A stretch of DNA of 64,000 nt from contig DASZRT010000151.1 of assembly GCA_035549075.1 (NCBI GenBank), positions 26,693 through 90,692 on the forward strand, in the 5' to 3' direction. Position numbers and translations under genes: made by a program. The notes under the pieces were generated by a model that did not search any database, was not told where the DNA came from, and was given only the letters and a program-made list of their open reading frames with translations. This document shows, piece by piece, positions 3,189 to 63,379 of this stretch. Source of the DNA: Polyangia bacterium (GTDB taxonomy: Bacteria > Myxococcota_A > Polyangia > Fen-1088). How positions within the stretch are numbered: position 1 is the first letter of the stretch; every line of letters starts with the position of its first letter.

Positions 3189-3941
3189 TCAGGCCGGCGC
3201 GCGCAGGTGCAGCAGAAACTCGACGTTGCCCTTGCCGCCCGTGATGGGCGAGACGGTGTCGCCGCGCGCCTCGTAGCCGAGCTCGACGGCGGCGGCGCGC
3301 ACCTCGTCGAGCGCCCGCGCGCGCGCCGCCTCGTCACGCACGATGCCGCCCTTGCCGATTTTCTCGCGCCCCACCTCAAACTGCGGCTTGACGAGCGCGA
3401 CGACGGGAGCGCCCGGCTTCGCAAAGACGATGAGCGCGGGCAGCACGAGCTTGAGCGAGATGAACGACACGTCGATGACGACGAGGTCGACGCGCGCCGG
3501 CAGCAGATCGGGCGGGGCGAGGCGGATGTTCACGCGGTCGAGCACCCGCACGCGCGCGTCCGAGGCGATCTTCCAATCGAGCTGCCCGTGCCCCACGTCG
3601 ACGCACGTGACGTGCGCCGCCCCGCGCTGGAGCAGGCAGTCCGTGAAGCCGCCCGTCGACGCGCCGACGTCCAGCGCCGTCAGCCCACGCGGGTCGACGC
3701 CGAACGCGTCGAGCGCGTGCGCGAGCTTGAGCCCGCCGCGCGACACGTACGGCATGGGCGCCGACCGCAGCCGCAGCTCCGCGCCCTCGTCGACCAAATC
3801 GCCCGCCTTTTCCACGGGCCGGTCACCCGCGAGCACCTCGCCCGCGAGGATGAGCGCCCGCGCCTTCTCGCGCGACGGCGCGAGCCCCTGCTCGACGAGC
3901 GCGAGGTCCGCGCGCGTCCGACGCGGCTTGGCGGAGGCCAT
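3189..3941 (-). CDS. tlyA: TlyA-family rRNA 2'-O-methyltransferase (hemolysin A-like)
   Basis: S4-like N-terminus (RADLALVEQGLAPSREKARALILAGEV) and FtsJ-like MTase core (LDVGASTGGFTD). ATG at 3941; an alternative TTG start lies at 3947. Confidence 0.9.
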   Translation of the reverse strand: MASAKPRRTRADLALVEQGLAPSREKARALILAGEVLAGDRPVEKAGDLVDEGAELRLRSAPMPYVSRGGLKLAHALDAFGVDPRGLTALDVGASTGGFTDCLLQRGAAHVTCVDVGHGQLDWKIASDARVRVLDRVNIRLAPPDLLPARVDLVVIDVSFISLKLVLPALIVFAKPGAPVVALVKPQFEVGREKIGKGGIVRDEAARARALDEVRAAAVELGYEARGDTVSPITGGKGNVEFLLHLRAPA

Positions 3942-4027
3942 GGGCAATCTTTAGAAGAGGTGGGTTGCAAAGTCGATCGCCCTGCGTAGAATGCAGCCGC
4001 GGTCGACGCTCCGGCGTCCACCGTGAT

Positions 4028-4103
4028 GGGGCTTTAGCTCAGCTGGGAGAGCGCCTGAATCGCACTCAGGAGGCCGACGGTTCGATCCCGTTAAGCTCCA
4101 CCA
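4028..4103 (+). tRNA. tRNA-Ala (anticodon CGC)
   Basis: Cloverleaf folds: acceptor GGGGCUU/AAGCUCC with a G3:U70 wobble (the Ala identity element), anticodon loop AUCGCAC, T-loop GGUUCGAUCC, encoded CCA end. Confidence 0.85.
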
Positions 4104-4142
4104 TCATCTCAAGTTTCGGCTCCGCCTCCCGATGCGCGGGCC

Positions 4143-5387
4143 GTGCGCCCATTCTTCGGGTTGGTCCTGGTGGCGGCGGCTGCGTTCACGCTCGGTGCCT
4201 CCTGCGGCGGTAAGGGTTCCGCCGCGGGTGAATGCACGGCGGCGGCGGACATTTCGGCCGGCAAGCTCCGATGCATGGACGAGCTCGCGACCTGCGGCTC
4301 GGTGACGGTCAACATGCTCGCCGGGGGCCTCACGTGCACGTACCCGTGTGGCACGTGCACGCCGGACGAGCGCTGCGACACGATGGACGACGTGGTCGAG
4401 GGCGGCAATGAGACGGGTGTCTGCGTCCCGCTCGACGAGCCGGACGCGTCGGTAGACGACGGCGGCGACGAGGACGCGTCGGAGCCGAACGACGCGCCGA
4501 CCAACACCTCGCCGGACGCGCCGACCGACACGCCCGTCGACCAAGCGATGACGAGCGACGCGGCCGGCGACGCGCCGGTCTCGCCGCCCTCGCTGTGCAC
4601 CGCGGTGCCGGTGCGGGCGCTCTCGATCCCCGACAGCTACAGCGGGACGCTCTCCGGCCCCAGCAAGATCGCGACGAGCAACTGCTGGGGCCAGGTCACG
4701 AGCGGCCCCGACGACGTGTTCACGCTGCACCTCGATCAGGCGACGGGCGTCGAGATCCACGCGCAGCTCGAGCCGGTGGCGTCGATCACCGACCAGACGA
4801 TCGTCGTCGGCGTCCGCAAGAAATGTGCGGACGGCGGCGGCGAGCTCGTCTGCAACGTCCATCGCAACCAAGGTACCGGCGCGCTCGTCCACACGATCCT
4901 GCAGCCCGGCGACTACCTCGTGACCGTCGATACCTTCACGGTGAGCCAGGACGGCGGCGCGCCGCCCTCGTCGGCGGCGTACTCGCTCACGACGTCGAAG
5001 TTCGACTTCCCACCCAACGTCGCATGCGCGCAGGCCGTCGAGGTCACGAACGGTCAGATGCTGACGAGCCAGGACGCCTCGGCCGGCGTCGACGATCTCT
5101 CGCGCTGCGACCGCCTCGTCACGGCGAAGGTCATCTACTACAAGGCCACCGTGCCCGCGGGGCAGACGCTCATGGTGAAGAGCACGGGCCGCAGCGCCGT
5201 GCGCATCCTCGCGTCCTGCGACGCGGCGACCTGCCTGACCGAGGCGAAGGACAACGGCACCTCGATGGGCGCGACCGCGACGTGGACCAACGCCGGCGCC
5301 GCGCCCACGACGGTCTTCATCGCGCTCGGCGCCTTCGACGCCTCGACGAGCGCCAGCTACGACATCTCCTTCGCGATCGCGCCCTGA
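4143..5387 (+). CDS. Secreted Cys-rich protein with an acidic Asp/Pro linker and two pre-peptidase C-terminal (PPC)-like beta-sandwich repeats; hypothetical
   Basis: GTG start. Signal peptide MRPFFGLVLVAAAAFTLGASC. Two repeats of ~110 aa share GTLSGPSKIATSNCWGQVTSGPDDVFTLHL and VTNGQMLTSQDASAGVDDLSRCDRLVTAKVIYYKATV. Confidence 0.75.
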   Translation: MRPFFGLVLVAAAAFTLGASCGGKGSAAGECTAAADISAGKLRCMDELATCGSVTVNMLAGGLTCTYPCGTCTPDERCDTMDDVVEGGNETGVCVPLDEPDASVDDGGDEDASEPNDAPTNTSPDAPTDTPVDQAMTSDAAGDAPVSPPSLCTAVPVRALSIPDSYSGTLSGPSKIATSNCWGQVTSGPDDVFTLHLDQATGVEIHAQLEPVASITDQTIVVGVRKKCADGGGELVCNVHRNQGTGALVHTILQPGDYLVTVDTFTVSQDGGAPPSSAAYSLTTSKFDFPPNVACAQAVEVTNGQMLTSQDASAGVDDLSRCDRLVTAKVIYYKATVPAGQTLMVKSTGRSAVRILASCDAATCLTEAKDNGTSMGATATWTNAGAAPTTVFIALGAFDASTSASYDISFAIAP

Positions 5388-5440
5388 CGTAAACCTCGTC
5401 GCGCCGCGACGCTCACAGAGCGGCGTTATGATCCGCGGCG

Positions 5441-6337
5441 ATGCCTGAACCGCGAACCGATCGCGCGCGCGGCGCCCTGTTCGGCCTCGCCGTCGGCGAC
5501 GCGCTCGGGACGACGCTCGAGTTCGCGAGGCCGGACGTTCCGTCATTTCCGACGCGGCTCGAGGGTCCTCATCGAACCATCACGGGCGCCGGGCCGTTTC
5601 GGTTGACGGCCGGCGAGGTCACCGACGACACGCAGATGGCTTGCTGCCTCGCGGCCTCGCTCACCGAGCGCGACGCGTTCGATGCGAGCGACGTTCTCAG
5701 TCGGTACAAGCGGTGGAGCCTCGTTGCGTTCGACGTCGGCCTTCAAACGAGGGCGGCGCTCTCGTTCGCCGCCGACGGCGGGCGCGCCGTGTGGGAGCGG
5801 CGAACGGGCGAAAAGCCGGCCGGCAACGGCAGCTTGATGCGGACGGCGCCGATCGGCGTGCGCTTCGCCGAAGACGACGACGCCCGCGTCGCCACGTCGT
5901 GGGCCGATTCGTCGCTCACGCACTTCGACCCGCGCTGTCTCTTCGCGTGCGTCGCCTTCAACGGCGCCGTCGCGGCCGGCGTGCGGGGCGCATCGACGGT
6001 CGAGATGCTCGCCGCGGCCACGCACGATCTCGAAGCCGCGCGCGCACGGTACGTCAAAGCTCGCTCACACATTCGCGCCGAGCTCACGAGCGGAGCGCGC
6101 GCCATCGCCGACGATCTCCGCTTCGCCGAAGCGCCCGATCCTCATCTCGAAAGCGTCTCCAGCGAAGGCGGCCTCGACCGCGGCGGCGACGCCGACACCA
6201 ACGGCGCCATCACCGGCGCGCTGCTGGGCGCGCGCCACGGCGAGAAGGCGATCCCCGCCACATGGCGCGATCGCGTTCTAAACGCGCGCGGGCTGGAGCC
6301 TCGGTACCACCCGCGCGTGTTGCTCGAGATGATTTAG
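5441..6337 (+). CDS. ADP-ribosylglycohydrolase family protein (DraG/ARH-like)
   Basis: ALFGLAVGDALGTTLEF N-terminal motif and C-terminal GGDADTNGAITGALLGARHG motif typical of ADP-ribosyl hydrolases. Confidence 0.85.
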   Translation: MPEPRTDRARGALFGLAVGDALGTTLEFARPDVPSFPTRLEGPHRTITGAGPFRLTAGEVTDDTQMACCLAASLTERDAFDASDVLSRYKRWSLVAFDVGLQTRAALSFAADGGRAVWERRTGEKPAGNGSLMRTAPIGVRFAEDDDARVATSWADSSLTHFDPRCLFACVAFNGAVAAGVRGASTVEMLAAATHDLEAARARYVKARSHIRAELTSGARAIADDLRFAEAPDPHLESVSSEGGLDRGGDADTNGAITGALLGARHGEKAIPATWRDRVLNARGLEPRYHPRVLLEMI

Positions 6338-6537
6338 GTGCGCCCGTGCGGAGGCGGGGGTGCGCTGGGCTGCTCGTCGCCTTCGCACTCTTCGAGCTTT
6401 TGTAGGTCCTTCTTCGGAATGAGCGCCGCGAGCGTCGTCCCGTACCGGGTGACCTTGATCCGTTCGCCTTTCGCCGTGCGCTCGATGAGCGCCGCGAAGT
6501 CCTTTCGCGCTTTCGCCGCCTGAACTCTTTGAGCCAT
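6334..6537 (-). CDS. Phd/YefM-like type II antitoxin-fold protein (67 aa), orphan
   Basis: KDFAALIERTAKGERIKVTRYGTTLAALIP matches the Phd/YefM N-terminal fold. It overlaps the convergent ADP-ribosylglycohydrolase gene by 4 bp. No toxin gene is adjacent. Confidence 0.55.
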   Translation of the reverse strand: MAQRVQAAKARKDFAALIERTAKGERIKVTRYGTTLAALIPKKDLQKLEECEGDEQPSAPPPPHGRT

Positions 6538-6701
6538 GACGGAAAGCTGGGTCGCGCTTTCGACACGTCAATGTGCGCAACACGGGGCCTGTCGGTAACC
6601 GCAGAAATAACGCCACCCGCAGTTGACATGGGCGAGTGCCAAACACATCTTGTACAAGAACTCGGGACTGTGTCGGTCTCGACTTCGAGGGAGGCCTCCA
6701 C

Positions 6702-8757: not shown

Positions 8758-9003
8758 ATGACCGTGACCAACGTGATTTTCGACCCAGCGCCTGTGCCTG
8801 CCGCCGCACCGACCGAGCCGCCCGAGCCGCCGATGCTCCTCCGGCCGCTCAGCCCACGTGAGAGCCAGATCGTTCAAATGCTCGATCAAGGCCGAACGCC
8901 GAAGGAAGTCGCCTTCGAGCTCGGCATCGCCAACGCGACGGTGCGGGTCCTGCTGTCGCGCGCGGTGAAGAAGGGCAGCCGCCCGCGCCGGGTTACCCGG
9001 TAA
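8758..9003 (+). CDS. Small LuxR/GerE-type HTH transcriptional regulator (81 aa)
   Basis: LSPRESQIVQMLDQGRTPKEVAFELGIANATVRVLLSRAVKK matches the LuxR C-terminal HTH. The 3' end overlaps the convergent cysK by 11 bp. Confidence 0.7.
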   Translation: MTVTNVIFDPAPVPAAAPTEPPEPPMLLRPLSPRESQIVQMLDQGRTPKEVAFELGIANATVRVLLSRAVKKGSRPRRVTR

Positions 9004-9928
9004 CGCGGCGGGCGAGGTCGGCGAAGACGGCGTTGTTCGCGTAGCGCTCGCCGCCATCCGGCAGCATGACGACGATGCGCTTGCCCCGCAGCTCGGGGCG
9101 CGCCGCGAGCGAGAGCGCGGCGTGCAGCGCGCCGCCGCTCGACATACCAGCCGAGATGCCCTCGCGACGCGCGAGGGAAAGCTGCGCGCGTACGGCCTCT
9201 TCCTCGGTGACGGCGACGACCTCGTCGATGACGGCGCGGTTGAGGATCTCGGGGACGAAGCCGGCGCCCAGGCCAGGCAGGTGGTGCGGCCCGGCCGCGC
9301 GGCCCGACAGCACGGCCGCGCCCGCGGGCTCGACGGCGACGACGCGAACGCCCGGCTTGCGGGCCTTGAGCACCTCGCCGACGCCCGTGATCGTGCCGCC
9401 CGTGCCGACGCCCGCGACGAAGACGTCGACGTCGCCGCCCGTGTCGGCCCAGATCTCTTCGGCCGTCGTGCGCCGGTGAACCTCGGCGTTCGCGGGGTTT
9501 CGGAACTGCTGCAGCATGACCGCGCCCGGCGTCGCGGCGACGAGCTCTTCGGCCTTCTTGACGGCCTCGCGCATGAGCGAGCCCGGCGTGAAGACGATGG
9601 TGGCGCCGAGCATGCGCAGGAAGCCGACGCGCTCTTGCGAGATGTGCTCGGGCATCGTGAGCGTGAGGGGGTAGCCCTTGGCGGCGGCGACGAACGCCAG
9701 CGCGATGCCGGTGTTGCCGCTCGTCGGCTCGACGAGCGCCGCGCCCGGCTTCAGCACGCCGCGCTTCTCGGCGTCTTCGATGAGCGCGGCGCCCACGCGA
9801 TCCTTGACGCTGCCGCACGGGTTGCGCGCCTCGAGCTTCACGAGGACGCGCGCGCCGCGCGTGTCGAGGCGGCGCAGCTCGACGAGCGGCGTGCGGCCGA
9901 CCGACTGGACGACGTCCGAGAAGAGCAT
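8993..9928 (-). CDS. cysK: Cysteine synthase A (O-acetylserine sulfhydrylase)
   Basis: PLP-lysine motif SVKDR, GNTG glycine loop, GTGGTITG; 311 aa. Confidence 0.95.
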   Translation of the reverse strand: MLFSDVVQSVGRTPLVELRRLDTRGARVLVKLEARNPCGSVKDRVGAALIEDAEKRGVLKPGAALVEPTSGNTGIALAFVAAAKGYPLTLTMPEHISQERVGFLRMLGATIVFTPGSLMREAVKKAEELVAATPGAVMLQQFRNPANAEVHRRTTAEEIWADTGGDVDVFVAGVGTGGTITGVGEVLKARKPGVRVVAVEPAGAAVLSGRAAGPHHLPGLGAGFVPEILNRAVIDEVVAVTEEEAVRAQLSLARREGISAGMSSGGALHAALSLAARPELRGKRIVVMLPDGGERYANNAVFADLARRVTG

Positions 9929-9973: not shown

Positions 9974-10561
9974 GTGAAACCCGTCGCCGTCGCCATGGCC
10001 GTCGCGCTCTCCGCGATGACGGCGGCGTGCGCGCCCGCCGTACAGAGCGCGACGGTGAAGGTCGCGTCGGAGCCCGTGCGCGCCGCCGACGACGCCGTCG
10101 TCGTCGTGATCGTCCAGCCCGAGTCGCGGCTGCGCTCGGTCGGTATTCTCGATGGGCGAGGTCAACTGGTCGCGCAGCTCGACGATCGCTCGCACGCCGT
10201 CGTGCACGTAAAGGAAGGACCCACGGTGCTCTACGCCGTGCGCGAGAACGACGTCGCGTCGGTCGATCGCGTCGAGGGCACGCTGGTCCCCGGCCGCGTC
10301 TACTACGCCATCGTCGGCGAGCGGCCGGGCGGCGTCTCGTTCGAGGTGTTGAGCCCGCGCTCGCCGGGCGGCCGCTGGGCGCACAAGGACGACTACCTTC
10401 GTTCGACGCCCCGGCTCGCCCTCGACGGCGACAAGGTCGGCCGCGTGATGAACGAGCTCGGCGATCCCGACGCCATCGTCCAGGCCGGCGAGGCCGCCGC
10501 CAGCAAGATGACGCCCGCCGCGACGGCGTCCCACACCTTCCAAGAGAACGACGGCTACTGA
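9974..10561 (+). CDS. Lipoprotein, hypothetical (195 aa)
   Basis: A GTG start gives MKPVAVAMAVALSAMTAAC (lipobox). The upstream part of track ORF 9122..10561 is antisense to cysK. Confidence 0.65.
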   Translation: MKPVAVAMAVALSAMTAACAPAVQSATVKVASEPVRAADDAVVVVIVQPESRLRSVGILDGRGQLVAQLDDRSHAVVHVKEGPTVLYAVRENDVASVDRVEGTLVPGRVYYAIVGERPGGVSFEVLSPRSPGGRWAHKDDYLRSTPRLALDGDKVGRVMNELGDPDAIVQAGEAAASKMTPAATASHTFQENDGY

Positions 10562-10682
10562 GGTGACGGGCGTCATTCCCGCGAAATAGCTCAGAATTCC
10601 TCAGGGCGCCTTCGCTGCATCGGCCAGCGATTCCGTGCCTGGTACGCCAAGGGCCATCGTCTATGTCTCCCGTACGGAGGTG

Positions 10683-12458
10683 ATGATGTCCCGAGGAATC
10701 ACGTCCACCTGCGTCGGTCTTGGCGTCGCCTTGGCCCTCGCTGGGTGCACCGGTACGATAGGCGGCTCGCCCGGCGCGGGTCGGCAGCCCGGCCAGAACG
10801 GCGGCGGTCCCGGCAGCGGCGGCACCGTTGGCTCGACGGGGGCTGGCGGAACGATCGCCGGCGCCGGTGGCACCATCGGGACGGGCTCGGGCGGTGGGGC
10901 CCCGGCGTCGTGCTCGGCGGCCGCGCCCGATCCGGGCGACACGCCCCTCGCGCGCCTCACGCAGGAGCAGTACCTCAACACGCTTCACGACCTCTTCGGC
11001 AACATCAACCTCACCTCGATCTTCCCCACGTCGCAGAGCGCCTCGCAGTTCGGGCTCGCGCAGGCCGACGTCGACGGCTCCGACCTCGACAAGTACCAGC
11101 GCGCCGCCGAGCAAGTGGCCGCCGCCGTCGTCGCCGACAAGAACGCGATGGCCAAGATCGCGCCGTGCACGGCGACCGCGGCCGCCGATCAGCGCACGTG
11201 CGCGAAGACCTTCTTGCAAAACTTCGGCACGAAGATCTACCGCGCGCCCATCGACGCCGCCGACTTCGATCGCCACCTCGCGCTCTACGACGCGGGCTCG
11301 CCCAACGGCGGCTACGCGCACGGCATCGAGCTCATGTTGCGCGGCATGATGCAGGCGCCGCGCTTCCTCTACCGCGTCGAGCTCGGCACGGCCGAGGCCG
11401 TGGGCCCGACCGCCGTGAAGCTCTCGGGCTACGAGCTCGCCTCGCGCCTGTCCTACACGCTGTGGAGCACGGGCCCCGACGACGCGCTCTTCGCGGCGGC
11501 CGCGGGCGGCAAGCTCGCGACGGCGGCCGACGCGCAGGCGCAGCTCACGCGCATGCTGGCCGATCCGCGCGGCGCGACGGCCGTGCGCCACTTCCTCGAG
11601 TCGTGGATCCACCTGCCCGATCTCGACAACGTCGCCAAGGACGGGACGCTCTACCCCGAGTGGAACGACGACGTCCGCGGCGCGATGACGACGCAGGCGC
11701 AGAAGTTCTTCGACGACGTGCTCGCGACCAAGGGCGGCACCGTCGCGTCGCTGCTGACGTCGAAGACGGTGTTCGCCAACGGCAAGCTCGCGCCGATCTA
11801 TTCGGCGCAGGCGACGACCTTCCCGACCGACGGCAGCTTCACGAGCAGCGACAAGACCGACGGCACGGCCTCGGGCCTGCTGACGCTGCCGGCGTTCCTC
11901 GCGACGCAGGCCAAGGCCAGCGAGAGCTCGCCGATCTACCGCGGCAAGTTCGTGCGCGAGCAGCTCTTCTGCCAGGAGCTGCCGTCGCCGCCCGCCAACG
12001 TCCCGCAGGCTCCCATGGTGACCCCGGGCGCGTCGACGCGCGACCGCCTCAAGCAGCACGAGAGCGACATGACCTGCGCCACGTGCCACACCCTCATCGA
12101 TCCCGTGGGCCTCGGCTTCGAGCACTACGACGCCATCGGCCGCTACCGGACCGTTGACGGCGGTAAGCCCGTGGACTCGACCGGCAAGCTCACGGGCACC
12201 GACGTCGACGGCGCGTTCGACGGCGTGAGCCAGCTGGGCACGATGATCGCCGCCAGCGCGCAGGTTCAATCGTGTGTCGCCAAGCAGTGGTTCCGCTACT
12301 CGATGGGCCGTGGCGAGCAGGACGCCGACAGCTGCTCGATCAACGCGCTCACGCAAGCCTTCACGGGCGCGGGCGCCGACCTGCGCACGCTGCCCGCGGC
12401 CATCGTCGCGACGCCCGCGTTCCTCTACCGCCGTCCGCTCGCGCAAGGGAGCAACTGA
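10683..12458 (+). CDS. DUF1592/DUF1588/DUF1585-family lipoprotein (so-called Planctomycete cytochrome-c-like) with a single CxxCH-like motif (CATCH)
   Basis: GGAGG RBS before ATGATG at 10683. Lipobox LALAGC. Gly-rich linker. C-terminal CQELPSPP...MTCATCHTLIDPVGLGFEHYDAIGRYR is characteristic of the DUF1585/DUF1588 region. Confidence 0.85.
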   Translation: MMSRGITSTCVGLGVALALAGCTGTIGGSPGAGRQPGQNGGGPGSGGTVGSTGAGGTIAGAGGTIGTGSGGGAPASCSAAAPDPGDTPLARLTQEQYLNTLHDLFGNINLTSIFPTSQSASQFGLAQADVDGSDLDKYQRAAEQVAAAVVADKNAMAKIAPCTATAAADQRTCAKTFLQNFGTKIYRAPIDAADFDRHLALYDAGSPNGGYAHGIELMLRGMMQAPRFLYRVELGTAEAVGPTAVKLSGYELASRLSYTLWSTGPDDALFAAAAGGKLATAADAQAQLTRMLADPRGATAVRHFLESWIHLPDLDNVAKDGTLYPEWNDDVRGAMTTQAQKFFDDVLATKGGTVASLLTSKTVFANGKLAPIYSAQATTFPTDGSFTSSDKTDGTASGLLTLPAFLATQAKASESSPIYRGKFVREQLFCQELPSPPANVPQAPMVTPGASTRDRLKQHESDMTCATCHTLIDPVGLGFEHYDAIGRYRTVDGGKPVDSTGKLTGTDVDGAFDGVSQLGTMIAASAQVQSCVAKQWFRYSMGRGEQDADSCSINALTQAFTGAGADLRTLPAAIVATPAFLYRRPLAQGSN

Positions 12459-13819
12459 TGAGCGCCACCGACACCCGCACCAAATTTTCGCGCCGTCGTC
12501 TGCTGGGTGGCCTCGGCGGCCTCACCGTGGCGCTGACGGCGCCCATCTGGAAGCCGGCGACGACGTTCGGTGCCGCCGCCAAGCCCGCCAAGCGCTTCAT
12601 CGGCGTGTTCTCGGCGAACGGCACGATCCCGCAGTCGTTCTTCCCCAACACGACGGCGCCCGAGTCGACGCTCGCGCTCGGCCCCGAGTGCCGCATCCTC
12701 GCGCCCATGGCCGCCCACAAGAGCCAGATGCTCGTGCTCAAGGGCGTCGACATGGTGTCGACGATCGGCGCCAACCACCCGGGCGGCCCGCACATGAAGG
12801 GCCCGGGCGCGATGCTCACGGGCGGCACGCTGCTGCCCGGCCCGTTCACGGGCTCCGAAGGCCCAGCTGGCTACGCGAACTGCATGTCGGTCGACCAGCT
12901 CATCGCGACCCGCCTTGGCACGACGACGAAGTTCCCGTCGCTCGAGTTCGGCGTGCGCATCCAGGGCCAAGAGCCGCTGCGCTACATCTCGTACCGCGGC
13001 GCCAGCATGCCCAACACGGCCGTCGACGATCCGTGGCAGCTCTACAGCCGCATGTTCGCCAACGCGGGCATGACCGACGCGCAGCTCGCGCGCACGATGA
13101 CCGAGCGCCAGAGCGTGCTCGACTTCTTGAAGGCCGACCTCACGTCGCTCGAGGCGCGCTTCTCGGCGAGCGATCGCGCGCGCCTCGACGCGCACCTCAC
13201 GGGCATCCGCACGATCGAGCAGCAGATGAAGGCGGGCACGCAAGCGTGCGCGACGCCGACGCTGCCGGCGCGCATCGACCCCGAGGTCATGGAGAACTTC
13301 CCGACCATCGCGAAGATCCAGATGGACCTCATGCTGCTCGCGCTCACGTGCGGCATGACCAACGTCGCGACGTTCATGTTCGCCAACGCCGACAGCTGGC
13401 AGTACTACCCGTGGATCGGCATCAACGAAGAGCACCACACGATGTCGCACGGCGACGACAACGACGCCGCGAACGTCGAGAAGCTCGTGCAGATCAACAT
13501 CTGGCACGCGCAGCAGATCAACTACATGCTCGACGGCCTCGCGGCGCACAACGAGGCGGACGGCAGCACGATGCTCGACAACTCGCTGCTGCTGTGGGGC
13601 AACGAGCTCGGCAAGGGCAACACGCACACCTACAAGGACATCCCCTGGATGCTCGCGGGCGGCGTGGGCGGCTCGATGCGCATGGGCCGCTTCCTCCAGT
13701 ACAACGCCCAGCCCCACAACAACCTGCTCGTCTCCGTCGCCAACGCCTTCGGCCTCAGCGACGTGAAGTCCTTCGGCGACCAGTCCGTCTGCACCGGCGC
13801 CTTGGGCAACCTCACCTGA
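12458..13819 (+). CDS. DUF1552-family protein with a twin-arginine signal (obligate partner of DUF1592)
   Basis: TGATG stop/start overlap with the upstream gene. SRRRLLGGLGGLTVALTA Tat motif; 453 aa. Confidence 0.85.
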   Translation: MSATDTRTKFSRRRLLGGLGGLTVALTAPIWKPATTFGAAAKPAKRFIGVFSANGTIPQSFFPNTTAPESTLALGPECRILAPMAAHKSQMLVLKGVDMVSTIGANHPGGPHMKGPGAMLTGGTLLPGPFTGSEGPAGYANCMSVDQLIATRLGTTTKFPSLEFGVRIQGQEPLRYISYRGASMPNTAVDDPWQLYSRMFANAGMTDAQLARTMTERQSVLDFLKADLTSLEARFSASDRARLDAHLTGIRTIEQQMKAGTQACATPTLPARIDPEVMENFPTIAKIQMDLMLLALTCGMTNVATFMFANADSWQYYPWIGINEEHHTMSHGDDNDAANVEKLVQINIWHAQQINYMLDGLAAHNEADGSTMLDNSLLLWGNELGKGNTHTYKDIPWMLAGGVGGSMRMGRFLQYNAQPHNNLLVSVANAFGLSDVKSFGDQSVCTGALGNLT

Positions 13820-13822
13820 GAC

Positions 13823-14375
13823 CGATCGGGCTCGCTCGCTGCCGCTCGCCTCGCGATGCGGGGCGACACGGGCTCGCTTGCTTCGCAAGCATCGCGGCTC
13901 GTCTCCGGTCGCTGGGCTGGCCGTGTTTGGGGATGCGTCCGCGCTCCGCGGCTCGGGCGGGCCCGACACGGCGCCAGCGGGTGTGAGGACGAAGGGGCCC
14001 TGGAAGCTCCGCGCGGCCGAGTCCCCGAACCCCTCCAGCACTGCACTCGCTACGTTCTGCCGTCGAAGTCAGGCAGGGCTCGCCGATGTTCGAGCCGCGC
14101 GCTCCAATTGTGGCGGTATCGGCCGACCTTCGAAGGCGAGACGTAGAAAGCGCGAGCGGACGGGTTTGGGGATGCGGCTGGGCGGAGCTTCCAGGCCCCT
14201 TCGACCTCACACCCGCTGGCGCCGTGCCGGGCCCGCCCGAGCCGCGGAGCCCAGACGCATCCCCAAACCCGGCCAGCCCAGCGACCGGAGACGAGCCGCG
14301 ATGCTTGCGAAGCAAGCGAGCCCGTGTCGCCCCGCATCGCGAGGCGAGCGGCAGCGAGCGAGCCCGATCGAATTG
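13823..14375. repeat. Large imperfect inverted repeat with arms 13823-14012 and 14183-14375 (about 90% complementary) around a ~170-bp spacer carrying a third partial copy of the TTTGGGGATGCG core; REP/MITE-like or structured-RNA element
   Basis: The reverse complement of 13823-13905 matches 14293-14375 almost exactly (terminal CGATCGGGCTCGCTCGC). Mirror-image ORFs on both strands translate to near-identical peptides (MLRKHRGSSPVAGLA...). An internal GCTTGCttcGCAAGC hairpin is present. Confidence 0.75.
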
Positions 14376-19594: not shown

Positions 19595-19604
19595 CGCCCG
19601 TCAG
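19591..19604. terminator. Short hairpin CTGACG-cc-CGTCAG containing the stop codons of both convergent genes
   Basis: Palindrome spanning TGA (19592-19594) and TCA (19601-19603). Confidence 0.25.
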
Positions 19605-20995
19605 GGCGCGCAGCTCGGCGCTGGTGAAGGCGCCGCCATGAGCGCCGCGTGCGCCTTGGCGTCGGCGTCGGCCGGCGCGAGCCCGTCACCGAGCTGTGCG
19701 GCGACGATCGTGCGCCACACGAGCTGAAGGTCCGTCGCCGTGCCCATCGGACAGAGCGTCTTCGCGCGCGCGGCGATGGCGTCCCACTCCATCTTGAGCA
19801 AGCCGGCGGCGTCCAGCTTCTGTTCGACGCGCTCGCTGTAGGTCTTCACCTCGAACGCGAGGTATTCGGGGAAGAGCTGACCGTCGCCCGCGTACGATCG
19901 ATACACGGCGCCGAGCGGCTCGGGATCACCGGGGCAGCCGTCGAGCTTGGCGTCGACGTATCCTGGCTGGATCGTCCCCGACGCGTGACCGACGGTGACG
20001 GCCGCGTCGTAGGCCGAAGGCGCGGGGCACTTCGCGAGCGCGGGCAGCGGGTGCCAGCCCGAGGCGTCGTTGCCGGCGATCGTGCAGTCGAGGCAGCCGT
20101 CGACGGCGAGCCCCCAGCGCGCCATGCCCTCGAACACGTTGTCGCGCAGCGTGACGCCCGAGATCGTCGTCGTCTTGCCGATGACGTGCAGCCCCGCCGT
20201 GAGGCCCGTGCCCAGGTAGCGCGGCGACGTCGCCGTCACGCGGTTGCCCGAGACGACGACGCCCGTGTGATCGGCCACGATGGCGTCGCCGACGTTGATG
20301 CCCGAGAACGCGCTCGTCTTCTCGAGCGTGACGACGTTGTCGCTGATCGTCGTGCCCGCGCCGCCGTAGTAGACGATGCCGACGGCCGAGGGATCGTGGA
20401 TCTGGTTGCGCGCGATCGTCGTGTGCGAGCAGGCGATCGAGACGCCGTCGGTCCAGTGTCCGCCGGCGTCGTGCGGGCGCGACGCGCTCTCGACGACGTT
20501 GTCGGTGACGATCGACGAGTCGCACGGCTCGATGAGGTGCAGGTGCGTCCAGCCGGGCGCGTCGGTGAACGAGCAGCCGACGATCGAGTAGCCGTCGCCG
20601 GGGCCGATCTCGACGAGCGCCTGCGAGTCCTGCGTGCCCAGCACGCGTCGGTTGCCGTCGAAGCGCACCGACGCGAGGTGAATGTCGCTGCCCGAGCCGC
20701 GCACGGCGCCGCTCGAGCTGATGGGGAAGTCGGCGCCGAGACGAATCGTCGCCATCTCCGTCGGGTCGGAAGGCAGGCCCGCCGTGAAGAGCGTGAGCCC
20801 TTGGCGCAAGACGAGCAGCTGCGACAGCACGATCTCGGCGCGCGGGCACAAGAGCACGGTCTTGCGCGCGTCGATCGCCGCCTGCAGATCGGCGCCCGTG
20901 CCCGTCGCGAGGCAGTCGGTGCCGATGTACTTCGTGTCGCCGTGGCACGCGGGCACGAGCGTCGCGAGCGCAAAGACGAAGACCGCGAGCTTCAT
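19601..20995 (-). CDS. Secreted right-handed parallel beta-helix (pectin-lyase-fold) protein
   Basis: The start was re-set to an internal ATG, giving MKLAVFVFALATLVPACHG (signal peptide). The beta-helix repeats are GxxxxxNxIxxN-like (SIVGCSFTDA, TIARNQIHD, TISDNVVT, VVSGNRVTA, TLRDNVFEG). The upstream 88 codons of the track ORF are Arg-rich and overlap the upstream gene. Confidence 0.8.
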   Translation of the reverse strand: MKLAVFVFALATLVPACHGDTKYIGTDCLATGTGADLQAAIDARKTVLLCPRAEIVLSQLLVLRQGLTLFTAGLPSDPTEMATIRLGADFPISSSGAVRGSGSDIHLASVRFDGNRRVLGTQDSQALVEIGPGDGYSIVGCSFTDAPGWTHLHLIEPCDSSIVTDNVVESASRPHDAGGHWTDGVSIACSHTTIARNQIHDPSAVGIVYYGGAGTTISDNVVTLEKTSAFSGINVGDAIVADHTGVVVSGNRVTATSPRYLGTGLTAGLHVIGKTTTISGVTLRDNVFEGMARWGLAVDGCLDCTIAGNDASGWHPLPALAKCPAPSAYDAAVTVGHASGTIQPGYVDAKLDGCPGDPEPLGAVYRSYAGDGQLFPEYLAFEVKTYSERVEQKLDAAGLLKMEWDAIAARAKTLCPMGTATDLQLVWRTIVAAQLGDGLAPADADAKAHAALMAAPSPAPSCAP

Positions 20996-21936
20996 GGCAG
21001 CGGCACCGCGAGGCCGAGCGCCGCCGTGACCGACACCGGCGCGGGCGAGAACACCGTGCTCTGCGCGCCCTCGATCGCGAACGTCGGGCGCTCGAACGCG
21101 GCGGCGCCCTCGATCGTCGCGACGAGCGCGAGGTGCGACGACAGCCGGCGCTCGGCGCCCGCGCCGAGCCACGCCGTCTCCCACCACGCCGTCGCGCCGT
21201 TGGTCTCGGCGACGCCGACGCCGTTCGCGCGCGTGCGGTCGACGTCGCCGCCCGCGCACAGGCGCGCGCGCCAGCGGCCGCGCTCGGTCCAGCCGCAGAG
21301 GCCCGCGCCGAACGAAAGCAATTCGAAATCGCCGCCCGCGCCCGCGCCACCGACGGTGGCGCGCGTGCTCGCCGGGAAGATCGTGCCACGCGCGACGAAC
21401 GCGAGGTGCTCACCGCCGAGCGTCGCCTCGACGCGCGCGCCGAGCGCAGCGTGCGGCAACGCGCCGAGCGCCGCGACGCCCGACGCCGCGAGCGCGCCGC
21501 GCACATTCATCGGAGGCGGGGACGCGGGCGCTTCGATCACGGGCGCGAAGCCACCGCCCGCCTGACCGCGTTCGATCGCTGGCGCGTCGTCGGCGGCCGA
21601 GTGCTCCTCGACGGTCACGAGCGCCGCGATGACGAGCCCCAGCGTCGCCCACCGCTCGGCCGGCGCGTCGTTGGCGCGGAACGACAGATCGCGACGTACG
21701 GGCGCGCGCGCGGGCTCGCTGGGATCCGCCAGCTCGACGGTCGCCGCGCCGTCACCCGCGGACGCGACGCGCGCTTGCCAGCACGAGGCGCCGCGATCGG
21801 CGGACTCGGGCAGAACGATGCGGCAACGGCCGACGCCGAGGATCTCGCTGCAACGTCGCTCGAGCGCGGCGCGCGGCGCGTCGGCGGCGACTGGTCCGGC
21901 GATCTCGACGGCTACACAGGCCTGGGGCGCGACCAT
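20992..21936 (-). CDS. Hypothetical membrane-anchored protein (314 aa) cotranscribed with ECF sigma/FecR
   Basis: ATG at 21936 with a GGAGAGG RBS, 12 nt after the FecR stop. One TM segment (WATLGLVIAALVTV). The C-terminus is beta-strand-like (alternating hydrophobics). Confidence 0.55.
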   Translation of the reverse strand: MVAPQACVAVEIAGPVAADAPRAALERRCSEILGVGRCRIVLPESADRGASCWQARVASAGDGAATVELADPSEPARAPVRRDLSFRANDAPAERWATLGLVIAALVTVEEHSAADDAPAIERGQAGGGFAPVIEAPASPPPMNVRGALAASGVAALGALPHAALGARVEATLGGEHLAFVARGTIFPASTRATVGGAGAGGDFELLSFGAGLCGWTERGRWRARLCAGGDVDRTRANGVGVAETNGATAWWETAWLGAGAERRLSSHLALVATIEGAAAFERPTFAIEGAQSTVFSPAPVSVTAALGLAVPLP

Positions 21937-21947
21937 CCTCTCCAGGA

Positions 21948-22985
21948 TTATCGCGGATGCACCGGCGTGCCGCCAACCTCGCCCTCGATGCCGGCGCGAA
22001 CGGCGCCGAGGTTGGCGCGCGCTTGTTCCGACAGCGGTCCGCGCGGCGCGCGCGCGAGCAGCTGTTGGTAGAGGCGAGCCGCCGCGGCGCCGCGGCCCGC
22101 GCGCTGCGCCTCGAGCGCCTGTTGGAAGAGCGCGTTCTGCGCGCGGAGGTCGCTCGGACGATCCACCGGACGCTCGATCACGCGCGGCGCGACGGCGATC
22201 TTGCGCACGTGCGCCGCTTCGACGGGCGCCGGCGCCGCGGCCACGGGCGCCTCGCAGCCCCACGTCTGCCCCGGCGCGACCATGTGGGTCTCGCCGCTCG
22301 CGAACACGGCGACGAGGCCCTCCTGCACGCGCACGCACGTCGCGGGCACCGAGCCCGGGTGCAGCTCGACGTCGAACTCGGTGCCGCGCACCTGCACGTC
22401 GGCGTCGGGCGTGAGGACATGAAAGCGCTGGCCCGCGTGCAGCTTCGTCACCTTGAGGTGCGCGCGGCCGCGCAGCAGGTTCACGGCCTCGATCGCCGGC
22501 GCGCCCGCGACCTCGGTGTTGGCGGCGACGACGGTGCCGACGCGCGACGCGGGCGCGAGCGTGAGCGTCGCCGTGTTGGCGAGCTGCACGCGCGTCGCCT
22601 CGTCGGCCGGCGCCTCGAGCGCGCCCGCGCCGAGCCCCGAGGCCTCGCCCGTGCGCAGCGTGCGGCGCGCGACGCCGTCCTCGAGCCAGAGCGTGCCGTC
22701 GAGCACCGCGACCGTCGCCGTGCGCGACGGCGCGACGCGCGCGCCCGGCGCGACGAGAATGATGGCGGCCGCCGCGCTCGAGACCGCGGCGAGCGTGAGC
22801 GCCGTGCGGCGCACGAAGCGCAGGCGGCGCGTGCGCACGTGAACGCGCGCGGCGTGCGCGCGCAGCTGCGGCACGACGCGCGCGCGGCGCGATGAACGAT
22901 CTCGCGCCGGCGGGCCCCCCGCCGGCAACGCATCGACGTAACGCGCGAGCGTCACGCGCGTGTCCTCCCCCTCACCCGCGTCCAT
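21948..22985 (-). CDS. FecR-family anti-sigma factor (TM + FecR domain)
   Basis: TM segment LTLAAVSSAAAAIILVA. FecR signature GQRFHVLTPDADVQVRGTEFDVEL. It overlaps the ECF sigma stop by 14 bp. Confidence 0.85.
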   Translation of the reverse strand: MDAGEGEDTRVTLARYVDALPAGGPPARDRSSRRARVVPQLRAHAARVHVRTRRLRFVRRTALTLAAVSSAAAAIILVAPGARVAPSRTATVAVLDGTLWLEDGVARRTLRTGEASGLGAGALEAPADEATRVQLANTATLTLAPASRVGTVVAANTEVAGAPAIEAVNLLRGRAHLKVTKLHAGQRFHVLTPDADVQVRGTEFDVELHPGSVPATCVRVQEGLVAVFASGETHMVAPGQTWGCEAPVAAAPAPVEAAHVRKIAVAPRVIERPVDRPSDLRAQNALFQQALEAQRAGRGAAAARLYQQLLARAPRGPLSEQARANLGAVRAGIEGEVGGTPVHPR

Positions 22986-23619
22986 TCTGCTTCTCCTTTT
23001 TCGCGATGAAATCTAGGACGTCTTTGCGCCCGCGCACGAGGCGCGACTGAGCGGCGGCGACGGTGACGCCCGTGAGCGACGCGATCTCCGTGAGCTCGTG
23101 CCCCATGATGTCGTGCAGGATCACGGCCTCGGCGCGCGTGCGGTTGACGGTCGCGAGCGCGCCCAGCAGGCGCTCGACGCGGCGGCGCGTCTCGGCGAGG
23201 CGCTCCGGCGTGCGTCCCTCCTCGGCGACGAGCTCGAGCGCCGCCGGACCCGCGGCGCGGTCGAACAGCTTCCGCTCGCGGGTGCGCGCGCGCATCGTGT
23301 CGATCGCCAGGTTCTGCGTGACGAGCGTGGCCCACGAGCGCAGGCTGCAGTTGTTGGCGAAGCGGTTCTGGACGATCGACGTGATGACGCGCTCGAGCGC
23401 CTGCTGCGCGAGATCGTCGCGCTCGAGATCGCCCGGCCCCATCAACCGGTAGAGCACGGCGTCGACGACGTCCTCGACGCGGTCGTAGACGACCTCGGCC
23501 GCCCACGCCTCGCCCGACGCGAGCGCGCGGCAGAGCTCGGCGTCGGTGAGCGAGCTGCCGCGCGGCGCGCCCGCCGCGCCGGCTGGCCCGCTCGGCGGAC
23601 GTGCCTTGAACAAGGCCAT
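22972..23619 (-). CDS. ECF (group IV) sigma-70 factor
   Basis: An internal ATG at 23619 gives a 215-aa protein with region 2 (VYDRVEDVVDAVLYRL..DLAQQALERV) and region 4 (ILHDIMGHELTEIASLTGVTVAAAQSRLVRGRKDV). Confidence 0.85.
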   Translation of the reverse strand: MALFKARPPSGPAGAAGAPRGSSLTDAELCRALASGEAWAAEVVYDRVEDVVDAVLYRLMGPGDLERDDLAQQALERVITSIVQNRFANNCSLRSWATLVTQNLAIDTMRARTRERKLFDRAAGPAALELVAEEGRTPERLAETRRRVERLLGALATVNRTRAEAVILHDIMGHELTEIASLTGVTVAAAQSRLVRGRKDVLDFIAKKEKQNGRG

Positions 23620-23711
23620 ATCAGATACGATAGACGCCCCGGCGGCGCCGGGCAGGCAGGAAATCATGGCGTCAAAATCGTGGCGCGCGGCGGCGGCGTG
23701 CGTTGTCACGA

Positions 23712-26351: not shown

Positions 26352-26440
26352 GCGTCGTTACCGTCGAGTCCGTTCGCTGGATAGACGACGCGGACGACCC
26401 GCGGCAGGCACGAAACGAGGCCTGTTTCCCGCGGTTTTAC

Positions 26441-49625: not shown

Positions 49626-49653
49626 TCACACCCACTGACCAATGAGGTCCGTC

Positions 49654-50760: not shown

Positions 50761-50767
50761 GGCCGCC

Positions 50768-55260: not shown

Positions 55261-55295
55261 AACGAGAGGCAACGGGGCACGACGGAGCGCTCATC

Positions 55296-62253: not shown

Positions 62254-62307
62254 GTGCCGGCAGCCTGCCAAAGCAGACCGCGACATGCAACGGCGGACCC
62301 TGACCTT

Positions 62308-63147: not shown

Positions 63148-63379
63148 CGAGTCTCCTCTCGGCATCGCGGCAGCGTCGCGCCCCGCGCCGGCGGCGATGG
63201 TGCATCCTCGCGCGAGCCGCTGCAACGGGGGGCTGCCTAACCGCCCTGCGACGCGAAAAACCCCGTGGTACTCACGGATCGGAGTTTTCCTGTCGGCGAC
63301 GGCGGCGGCGTTCGGGGGAGCGTCCGCCGCCGGCGCCGCGGGATTTACGGGCCCGCTAACAGGCCGGCCCAACGGGCCG

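Follow-up and report, generated by a model that had tools for sequence, protein, structure and literature searches.

What do two adjoining genes do when their products are described only by domains of unknown function? The question is raised by a gene pair, here called A and B, in a Polyangia (Myxococcota) metagenome-assembled genome (MAG), within the 64,000-nucleotide stretch of DNA that we analysed (the window). A first-pass annotation, made from the sequence alone, had described the pair as a widespread DUF1592/DUF1588/DUF1585 and DUF1552 module with no known function. On the last point the literature agrees (PMC5615132), and our search of it found no functional characterisation of DUF1552, DUF1592, DUF1588, DUF1501 or DUF1800.

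A translationally coupled gene pair from a large family

10686–12458, forward strand: gene A, 590-residue lipoprotein with the domain order PSD3-PSD5-PSD4-PSCyt3-PSD2 (DUF1587/1595/1592/1588/1585), from Pfam and an independent gene call
12456–12460, forward strand: TGATG junction, with the stop codon of A at 12456–12458, the start codon of B at 12458–12460 and a 1-nt overlap
12458–13819, forward strand: gene B, 453-residue DUF1552/HXXSHH protein with a predicted alkaline-phosphatase/sulfatase-superfamily fold

Gene A has an ATG at both 10683 and 10686, preceded by GGAGG at 10676–10680; an independent gene call begins A at 10686, giving 590 residues and leaving 10683 as the alternative start. 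Scanning with hmmscan, we detected five domains in the expected order, PSD3/DUF1587 (PF07626; 5e-9, 36.9 bits against a gathering cut-off of 23), PSD5/DUF1595 (PF07637; 1e-19, 70.8 bits, cut-off 34.2), PSD4/DUF1592 (PF07631; 5e-38, 130.9 bits, cut-off 23.3), PSCyt3/DUF1588 (PF07627; 4e-31, 107.8 bits, cut-off 27; residues 397–491) and PSD2/DUF1585 (PF07624; 2e-16, 59.9 bits, cut-off 25.8), which place A in the PSCyt3/PSD multidomain family. These domains were reportedly defined by Studholme et al. in 2004. Gene B matches HXXSHH/DUF1552 (PF07586; hmmscan, 2e-78, 264 bits, cut-off 30) and is assigned to that family by this match together with its conserved His/Ser motif. All matches of A, B and a further open reading frame at the window edge lie above the gathering score, bearing out the annotated DUF families. 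Beyond PF07586, B matches no Pfam family even at E ≤ 10 (Sulfatase, Phosphodiest, Metalloenzyme and DUF1501 included), and NCBIfam returned no family other than the DUFs.

The two genes overlap by a single nucleotide in TGATG, as had been annotated, and a Shine-Dalgarno sequence for B (AAGGGAG) lies within A at 12445–12451. The annotation had proposed neighbour conservation as a check, and A was found immediately 5' of B in all testable related loci (74/74 and 12/12; 86/86 in total). Among 75 related loci, the overlap is −4 nt (ATGA) in 54 and −1 nt in 3, and the identities of A and B homologs to the window proteins co-vary (r = 0.95, 69 loci). Because this overlap coupling is conserved (ATGA, 54 of the 75 loci), co-translation of A and B is very likely; the overlap behind the earlier description 'obligately co-expressed' is real, but 'obligately' exceeds what a 1-nt overlap can carry. 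We conclude that A and B form a two-gene operon with coupled translation, whose products make up an extracytoplasmic pair.

The DUF1552 family comprises 10,383 clusters at 50% identity, with some matches labelled Planctomycetota or Verrucomicrobiota, in line with the wide distribution claimed for it, and myxobacterial copies occur in the cultured Sorangium cellulosum strains So ce56 and So0157-2 and in Hyalangium. The pairing of PSCyt3/PSD2-5 and DUF1552 genes in Planctomycetes and Verrucomicrobia is already in print (He et al. 2017, PMC5615132, Text S1 and Fig. S7b), with near-equal PSCyt3 and DUF1552 counts per genome across 19 MAGs (supplement of the same paper). The window pair, being adjacent, on one strand and with the PSCyt3 gene first, belongs to this two-gene module and is an unremarkable representative of a very large pair of families that had been catalogued before. 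It shares the six Pfam families, the gene order, adjacency, near 1:1 copy number and predicted export of the published pair, and differs from it in its host, a Myxococcota MAG, and in lacking both fused domains (CBM or protein-interaction) and sulfatase neighbours.

A is a predicted monoheme lipoprotein

10686–10748, forward strand: predicted lipoprotein signal peptide of A, with the lipobox L-A-G-C21 at its end (from sequence)
10749–10895, forward strand: Gly/Thr-rich, predicted disordered tether of A, residues 22–70 (from sequence; pLDDT <50 at residues 20–70)
12057–12089, forward strand: predicted heme-attachment motif H458-x5-C464-A-T-C467-H468 in the PSCyt3 domain (from sequence and conservation)

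The N-terminus of A (MSRGITSTCVGLGVALA-LAGC, with the cysteine at residue 21) fits the criteria for a lipoprotein signal (an n-region with positive charge, then a hydrophobic h-region, then the lipobox [LVI][ASTVI][GAS]C), predicting lipidation, and the lipobox cysteine is kept in 30/31 diverse A homologs. Exactly one CxxCH is present, C464-A-T-C-H468 (nt 12075–12089), within the PSCyt3 match; the earlier description of a lipoprotein with a single CATCH motif therefore stands, and the motif is canonical, not merely 'CxxCH-like'. Both the CxxCH and the upstream histidine are invariant in 71 close and 32 diverse homologs. All 73 related-locus homologs that cover the motif carry it, 72 of them in single copy, the exception being a Pseudohongiella homolog (locus L059), to which an additional class I cytochrome c domain is fused (PF13442; 40.6 bits, gathering cut-off 27) that contributes a second CxxCH. 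In bacteria with a cytochrome c maturation system, a Sec-exported CxxCH is normally hemylated. Motif, conservation and Sec-type export together predict a single conserved c-type heme attachment site in A.

The AF2 model of A is mostly alpha-helical (pLDDT 84.5, pTM 0.83) and displays no cytochrome c fold, the class I three-helix fold around CxxCH being absent from it. No solved structural relative of A was found, and a sequence search against solved structures gave chance matches only. Six further cysteines are conserved (C76, C161, C172, C429, C530 and C550); of the histidines only two are conserved across diverse homologs, and of the methionines none.

B is a predicted Tat substrate with a His-rich site

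12458–12580, forward strand: predicted Tat signal peptide of B; its S-R12-R13-R-L-L occupies nt 12488–12505 (from sequence)
12791–12793, forward strand: H112 of B, motif GGPH-MKGPGAMLTG, kept in 130/132 sequences
13433–13450, forward strand: HHxxSH family-name motif of B, H326-H327-T-M-S330-H331 (conservation, 132 sequences)
13595–13648, forward strand: W-G-N382-E383-L-G-x-G-N-x-H390 segment of B, after a core beta-strand

The twin-arginine leader that had been noticed on B (...KFSRRRLLGG...; in full FSRRRLLGGLGGLTVALTAPIW) fits the Tat criteria, S/T-R-R-x-F/L-L/K and after it an h-region of moderate hydrophobicity, predicting export by this route. Across diverse family members R12 and R13 never vary (132/132), and the RR motif occurs in B homologs at 74/75 related loci.

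The predicted structure of B places it in the alkaline-phosphatase/sulfatase superfamily, with a core alpha/beta sandwich of hydrolase/transferase type that superposes at fold level on other superfamily members; its structural neighbours (sulfatases, phosphatases, NPPs, phosphoethanolamine transferases and LtaS) are without exception hydrolases or transferases. Searches of solved structures (PDB) with B and with a B profile gave chance matches only and no sequence relatives, and when the B profile was aligned to E. coli AslA with hhalign, the probability was 0.5%. Six histidines (H112, H246, H327, H331, H390 and H420) and the acidic E383 are nearly invariant among 132 sequences at 33–61% identity: within the family-name motif, H327 is kept in 131/132, H331 in 132/132, H326 in 116/132 and S330 in 115/132, and further on H390 is kept in 132/132, while 120/132 carry an acidic residue (E or D) at position 383.

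As judged from motif and secondary-structure register, H112 appears to sit at the position of the sulfatase C/S-x-P-x-R nucleophile; the register was taken from the E. coli AslA sequence and DSSP of the B model and is one of motifs, not a superposition. The nucleophile-equivalent segment reads GGPHMKGPGAMLTG, and [CS]x[PA]xR occurs there in 0/132 DUF1552 members. Comparison with AslA motifs suggests that the W-G-N-E segment resembles the sulfatase metal-ligand segment 'FTSDNG...GKG'. By the same kind of register, beta1 of B appears to end in S52-A53-N54, at the place of an Asp or Asp-Asp metal ligand in superfamily hydrolases; N is found there in 94/132 and D in only 5/132 sequences. A late core strand appears to be followed by N382-E383, where superfamily hydrolases have an Asp-His/Asn pair. 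Type I sulfatase (S1) was considered as an identity for B and rejected, since the formylglycine motif C/S-x-P-x-R is missing in the family (0/132 members).

A second pair at the window edge

63380–64000, reverse strand: B', a second DUF1552 gene truncated at the window edge, of which the last 206 codons lie inside (from Pfam)

The open reading frame at the edge matches the C-terminal part of DUF1552 (hmmscan, 6e-31, 108.6 bits). Its strand is opposite to that of the first pair, so the 5' end of B' and its partner lie beyond position 64000. A lookup with a PEBP-like protein (one with a PurL protein gave no match) led to contig L080, which equals window positions 61966–64000 at 100% identity over 2035 bp and runs 1696 bp beyond. 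It encodes the full B' (461 aa, 284.7 bits against DUF1552, motif HHDISHH) and, directly 5' of it with a 4-nt ATGA overlap, a PSD4/PSCyt3/PSD2 gene fragment that is the C-terminus of A', a PSCyt3-family partner just outside the window as the first-pass annotation had predicted. The two pairs are old paralogs, with 35% identity between A and A' and 30% between B and B', and the genome thereby holds at least two anciently diverged copies. The PEBP-like lipoprotein gene 3' of B' was rejected as a partner, as it is not conserved in 14 related loci.

Genes around the first pair

No sulfatase, CBM or ECF partner adjoins the pair in the window. Upstream of the pair, Polyangiaceae loci carry an ECF sigma factor as well as a gene for a CBM-like beta-sandwich; as core third genes, the ECF sigma factor, a TPR protein and the beta-sandwich protein were rejected, for they recur upstream only in a related Polyangiaceae subset and are absent here. 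An upstream 188-aa open reading frame (9995–10561) has no Pfam match and was likewise rejected as a conserved third gene, having no homolog in related loci.

A candidate periplasmic oxidoreductase and its alternatives

The explanation that we favour, tentatively and at somewhat below an even chance, is a membrane-tethered periplasmic two-subunit enzyme made of a Tat-exported metallo-subunit and a monoheme redox partner, the redox role being what we infer. A would be exported through Sec, anchored by lipid at C21, and would consist of a flexible Gly-rich tether of ~50 residues and a mostly alpha-helical body of 500 residues. B, in which the usual nucleophile motif would be replaced by the His set and E383, would take up a metal cofactor in the cytoplasm, be exported folded via Tat and serve as the catalytic subunit. 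In the periplasm B would dock onto A, which would hold it at the membrane, and the single heme of A would move electrons between the metal centre of B and the respiratory chain, making the pair a periplasmic oxidoreductase on a hydrolase scaffold. Its substrate would probably be an extracellular or periplasmic glycan or ester-type compound, judged by context in other lineages, and the two or more anciently diverged copies in the genome may point to differing substrate specificities.

Electron transfer is supported by the Pseudohongiella fusion of an A homolog with a class I cytochrome c domain. Periplasmic redox subunits that contain a cofactor and have a Sec-exported c-type cytochrome as partner typically leave the cytoplasm by Tat, as in SorAB. 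Other points count against this oxidoreductase: to our knowledge, no member of the alkaline-phosphatase superfamily is a redox enzyme; with two conserved histidines and no methionine in A, a distal heme ligand is not evident; and it is by motif register, not by superposition, that H112 and E383 are matched to catalytic positions. The periplasmic redox or binding systems of which the annotation had spoken are likewise a proposal, and the structural evidence points in both directions, with B having a hydrolase/transferase-type fold with a remodelled His-rich site, and A having no cytochrome c fold in its model. As to the substrate, PSCyt proteins elsewhere have CBM fusions and sulfatases nearby (PMC5615132; PMC3542564), and these, together with the upstream genes of the Polyangiaceae loci, suggest that it is probably glycan-related; the hint is borrowed from other loci and phyla because the window pair has no sulfatase, CBM or ECF neighbour.

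We also consider, as a speculative and rather unlikely proposal, that DUF1552 is a new catalytic class in the alkaline-phosphatase/sulfatase fold, with a His-ligated, redox-active metal centre in place of the nucleophile that is wired via a dedicated monoheme lipoprotein whose fold has no solved relative, so that the pair would be an unrecognised periplasmic oxidoreductase family. If true, this could mean, for example, the oxidative processing of glycans that carry sulfate, phosphate or other decorations, and would explain why paralogous pairs occur by the dozen in Planctomycetes, Verrucomicrobia and Myxococcota.

The same fold can be read without redox chemistry. B could be a metal-dependent esterase or a phospho- or sulfo-transferase with a variant active site, and A an anchoring, substrate-binding or specificity subunit whose heme is structural or sensing, an explanation that we hold unlikely, yet a serious contender. 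The exclusively hydrolase and transferase neighbours of B speak for it, as does the apparent persistence of sulfatase-like motifs (MLTGG against ILTGQ, NSLLLWGNELG against NTLIVFTSDNG); moreover, A is large and multi-domain, far above the size of an electron shuttle, and its homologs gain carbohydrate-binding-like inserts (also PMC5615132). However, B lacks the canonical nucleophile motif and, as judged by motif register, probably also the beta1 Asp-Asp, and the strict conservation of CxxCH (at 34–100% identity), along with the cytochrome c fusion, is hard to explain without electron transfer.

Improbable, in our judgement, is a sensing system in which B would be a pseudo-enzyme, a ligand-binding alkaline-phosphatase fold like the periplasmic domain of PbgA/YejM, and A a heme-based sensor or scaffold, with output to the ECF sigma factor that is adjacent in many Polyangiaceae. 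The many paralogs per genome (PMC5615132) fit enzymes of varied substrates better than sensors. The six or seven nearly invariant His/Glu positions of B look metal-binding or catalytic over all 132 sequences (33–61% identity), and the ECF association is limited to a related subset of loci that does not include the window. Least probable is that the CxxCH of A binds a metal or works as a redox-active dithiol within a helical protein of a new kind, which might load or activate B as, for instance, a metallochaperone or a thiol-disulfide partner: the missing cytochrome-like fold or solved relative, the six further conserved cysteines suggestive of a disulfide-rich periplasmic protein and the metal presumably needed by His-rich B would suit it, but a Sec-exported CxxCH is normally hemylated given cytochrome c maturation, Pfam places the domain among cytochrome-like proteins, the Pseudohongiella fusion brings a true cytochrome c domain, and the use of Tat by B implies cytoplasmic loading, not a periplasmic chaperone.

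Relation to known systems

For the favoured oxidoreductase, the closest model of how such a pair might work is offered by SorAB-type dehydrogenases (sulfite dehydrogenase SorAB), which also combine a Tat-exported cofactor subunit with a Sec-exported heme c subunit, are encoded by adjacent, co-transcribed genes and are periplasmic. Unlike in SorAB, B has no molybdopterin or other known redox-cofactor domain, and A has ten times the size of a class I cytochrome c as well as another fold. Compared with Type I sulfatases and with PafA, NPP, EptA/MCR-1 and LtaS, B has undetectable sequence similarity, lacks C/S-x-P-x-R and a Ser/Thr nucleophile motif, has a histidine at the inferred nucleophile position and adds the HHxxSH motif, a long helical insert at residues 192–297 and an obligate partner with a heme motif.

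A secreted CxxCH protein beside a protein with a twin-arginine signal is also found in the PSCyt1/PSCyt2/PSD1 and DUF1501 module, which differs in its Pfam families, is massively expanded in the phyla of the PSCyt3/DUF1552 pair too and has been proposed to act in electron transport (Kamneva et al. 2012, PMC3542564). The secreted Cbp2D of Cellvibrio japonicus, a proposed electron donor to LPMOs, combines a DUF1587 (PSD3) region with single-CxxCH cytochrome domains and a CBM and would tie the DUF1587 domain set to extracellular redox chemistry on polysaccharides (PMC8981238); the DUF1587 annotation is all that it has in common with A according to that paper, whereas its X158, X183 and X132 domains differ and a DUF1552 partner is not reported.

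DUF1552 alone has ~10,000 clusters at 50% identity; together with its PSCyt3 partner it ranks with the exported protein sets that have expanded most in several environmentally dominant phyla of polymer degraders, and no function has been assigned to them in more than 20 years. To this DUF-only module our analysis adds, as testable hypotheses, a sulfatase/alkaline-phosphatase fold, a His cluster in place of the nucleophile, an invariant Tat signal and a partner with a heme motif. The cultured myxobacterial carriers, Sorangium and Hyalangium, make genetics and biochemistry more feasible than in most Planctomycetes.

A palindrome beside the operon

13823–14370, no strand assigned: 548-nt near-perfect palindrome, beginning 4 nt past the stop codon of B

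The palindrome matches no Rfam family and has no copy in related loci, and a 24-mer from its arm is absent from metagenome contigs. Folded as RNA, it reaches −554 kcal/mol (z −34.7), and it is possibly a 3' hairpin or terminator, or a foldback element.

A translationally coupled gene pair with export signals

The window has a G+C content of ~70%, and two open reading frames (ORFs) at 10.6-13.8 kb on the plus strand show coding-type GC3 values of 0.93 and 0.89. Using Pfam hmmscan, we found that the first (gene A) matches PSD3/DUF1587, PSD5/DUF1595, PSD4/DUF1592, PSCyt3/DUF1588 and PSD2/DUF1585, each above the gathering score, and that the second (gene B) matches HXXSHH/DUF1552 at 2e-78. Together with the match of an ORF at the window edge (B′), this confirmed the DUF families that the first-pass annotation had named for all three ORFs, and a scan of the window for additional members of either family found none beyond them.

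10686-12458, plus strand: gene A, predicted lipoprotein
12458-13819, plus strand: gene B, 453-aa DUF1552 protein
63380-64000, minus strand: B′, C-terminal part of DUF1552 (Pfam hmmscan, 6e-31), cut by the window end

Both proteins of the pair are members of these families and both carry export signals, A beginning with a lipoprotein signal (MSRGITSTCVGLGVALALAGC) and B with a twin-arginine leader (MSATDTRTKFSRRRLLGG...). Candidate start codons of A are the ATGs at 10683 and 10686, with GGAGG in front, and the 590-aa form, which starts at 10686, is the one called in an independent assembly. The A stop codon TGA (12456-12458) and the B start codon ATG (12458-12460) share one base, and the sequence AAGGGAG is found 6 nt 5′ of the ATG. 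A Polyangia bacterium metagenome-assembled genome (MAG) encodes a protein with 100% identity to B, and the A/B locus was also found in assembly GCA_964589105.1.

The NCBI gene model of A (P0121) has 575 aa and begins 15 codons after the ATG at 10686, presumably at a TTG inside the signal peptide (10686-10748); because the start is placed there, the lipoprotein signal is missing from the NCBI annotation, and it is retained in the other assembly's 590-aa call.

The pairing is conserved in related genomes

A genome scan with the B alignment yielded 77 loci, from Polyangia, Sorangium, other Myxococcota, Hyalangium, Oligoflexus and a Pseudohongiella. The locus with the orthologous pair in Sorangium cellulosum So ce56 is NC_010162.1, about 788.8-802.2 kb. 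The expectation that the two genes are kept as neighbours in related genomes held throughout: by tblastn, an A homolog lies immediately 5′ of B on the same strand in 74/74 loci having upstream DNA, the other three of the 77 being cut at B and hence outside this count, and an A-type gene is adjacent upstream in 12/12 testable loci of the B′ subfamily. Of 75 loci, 54 have a 4-nt overlap of A stop and B start (ATGA or GTGA) and three a 1-nt overlap; in the rest the distance is mostly <20 nt. Across 69 loci, the identity of A to the A of the window correlates with that of B to the B of the window (r = 0.95). A and B are translationally coupled and obligately adjacent.

At E<=1e-3, clustering at 50% identity divides the B family into 10,383 clusters. 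He et al. already published the PSCyt3-DUF1552 pairing and tabulated near-equal counts of both families across 19 Verrucomicrobia MAGs (PMC5615132), and a literature search for a functional study of the PSCyt3/DUF1552 module found none. With A and B, a known but uncharacterised module gains one more member, and the occurrence of the pair in a Polyangia MAG is unsurprising; the value of the analysis lies in sharper family-level hypotheses.

Protein A carries a single invariant heme-type motif

The AlphaFold2 model of A, built from 71 sequences (pLDDT 84.5, pTM 0.83), shows disorder in residues 1-70, which comprise the signal peptide and a Gly-rich tether, and a mostly helical body, with no solved structure related to it. 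A contains exactly one CxxCH (C464-A-T-C-H468), which is present in 73/73 related-locus homologs covering the motif. The extended arrangement H458-x5-C464-x-x-C467-H468 is kept without exception in the 71 close homologs and in the 32 diverse ones, at identities as low as 34%. Across the diverse homologs, H458 and H468 are the sole conserved histidines, six further cysteines are conserved, and no methionine is. The motif and the Sec-type export predict that A likely binds heme covalently.

Protein B combines a sulfatase-like scaffold with a histidine-rich site

B has an alkaline-phosphatase/sulfatase-superfamily fold into which helices are inserted at roughly residues 192-297. An alignment of 132 sequences (33-61% identity) shows a conserved histidine cluster; the sulfatase C/S-x-P-x-R motif before the 'MLTG' helix occurs in 0/132 family members.

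Conserved residues of B in the 132-sequence alignment
R12, R13, H331, H390: 132/132
H327, H246, D146, C298: 131/132
H112, C264: 130/132
H420: 121/132
E383 (as E or D): 120/132
H326: 116/132

The register of B relative to sulfatases was obtained by setting the DSSP order of the B model (beta1 46-52, alpha 76-90, beta2 91-98, helix 111-121) against the motifs of E. coli AslA. From this comparison, we infer that H112 would lie at the position of the sulfatase formylglycine precursor, A53-N54 at that of the Asp-Asp, and N382-E383 (NSLLLWGNELG) at that of the Ser-Asp-Asn (NTLIVFTSDNG). On its sulfatase-like scaffold, B therefore carries a remodelled, His-rich site, which is presumably metal-binding. 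In addition, the invariant twin-arginine motif implies export in a folded state, for which cytoplasmic insertion of a cofactor or metal would most simply be the reason.

A possible periplasmic redox complex

Our leading reading, which we hold tentatively, is that A and B form a membrane-tethered periplasmic complex, in which B would be the metallo-catalytic subunit and the heme of A would exchange electrons with it. The further proposal that the alkaline-phosphatase fold includes a new, redox-active class served by a dedicated cytochrome of novel fold is rather doubtful. Somewhat unlikely, too, is that B acts as a hydrolase or transferase with A as a non-redox scaffold; in the Pseudohongiella homolog of A, an extra class I cytochrome c domain (PF13442, 40.6 bits) is fused at the N-terminus, and this fusion argues for electron transfer. 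A PbgA-type module for binding or sensing, without catalysis, appears improbable, and a non-heme metal or thiol role for the CxxCH of A more improbable still.

The Pseudohongiella homolog (L059, MAG OX638378.1, about locus 3400-5960) also contains an unassigned beta-rich insert of ~140 aa between PSCyt3 and PSD2, with CBM-like sequence.

An old paralogous pair at the window edge

The partner of the edge DUF1552 gene, predicted to lie just beyond the window, was found on L080, a 3.7-kb Logan contig with 100% identity to window 61966-64000 that reaches 1696 bp past the window end. Directly 5′ of B′, this contig carries the 3′ part of a PSD4/PSCyt3/PSD2 gene (A′) containing HHMNPCAVCH, and the two genes overlap at an ATGA. 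Full-length B′ has 461 aa, a DUF1552 match at 1.4e-84, the leader KIRRRLFLGG and the motif HHDISHH. A and A′ share 35% identity and B and B′ 30%; the pairs are therefore old paralogs that diverged as a unit and do not stem from a recent duplication.

Next to B′ lies one further gene, on the same strand and 233 nt downstream:

62308-63147, minus strand: PEBP/YbhB-YbcL-family protein (PF01161, TIGR00481), bearing a lipoprotein signal and a long linker rich in Gly and Thr

This gene is not conserved beside B′ homologs in 14 related loci, and its product is hence probably unrelated to B′ as a partner.

Gene neighbourhood

The A/B pair stands alone in the window, with a divergent cysteine synthase-like gene and a 188-aa ORF without assignment upstream, and TetR, MFS and membrane-fusion genes 3′. 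Among related loci, an ECF sigma factor is encoded 5′ of the pair in 34/74, mostly Polyangiaceae and Sorangium; ten loci encode an upstream TPR (YfiO-like) protein, and 14 a beta-sandwich protein with weak resemblance to GH115_C. These genes, situated 1-3.5 kb 5′ of A in the same orientation (loci L006-L074) and absent from the window, may be lineage-specific regulatory and accessory genes; while not universal, they hint at envelope-signal regulation and carbohydrate binding. Elsewhere, PSCyt genes show CBM fusions and sulfatase neighbours (PMC5615132, PMC3542564), and a region annotated as DUF1587 is reported in Cbp2D of Cellvibrio, which is a candidate electron donor to LPMOs (PMC8981238).

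In the second assembly (L001), an 81-aa ORF at 6301-6546 (~ window 8760-9005) matches only sigma-70 region 4 and runs over the end of the cysteine synthase-like gene, which lies two genes 5′ of A; this ORF may be what is left of the Polyangiaceae-type upstream ECF sigma factor, or a spurious gene call.

Other loci in the window

13823-14370: 548-nt near-perfect palindrome, beginning 4 nt 3′ of the B stop codon
19601-26357, minus strand: beta-helix (NosD-like) protein and GH95-like glycoside hydrolase with DUF5703_N
49639-55260, plus strand: complete RND efflux operon (membrane-fusion protein, AcrB-family pump, outer-membrane factor)
55257-56129: Sir2-family gene, after the efflux operon

The palindrome has outer arms of 177 nt that are 97% complementary (87% self-complementarity overall) and is predicted to fold into one hairpin (-554 kcal/mol, z -34.7). 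No second copy was found in the window or in the 77 related loci, Rfam gave no match, and a 24-mer from one arm was absent from JGI metagenome contigs; L001 contains an identical copy. The genes at 19601-26357, between which L001 has an ECF sigma and FecR pair, look like a polysaccharide-degradation cluster, ~6 kb downstream of the A/B pair and with no evident link to it. Finally, 18-nt-periodic GC-rich repeats (26016-26198, 35579-35887, 36694-36939, 41499-41807 and 62791-63075) encode Gly/Thr/Ser/Pro-rich linkers in several genes for predicted secreted proteins or lipoproteins, those of A residues 22-70 included, and such linkers are a tether style common to this genome.
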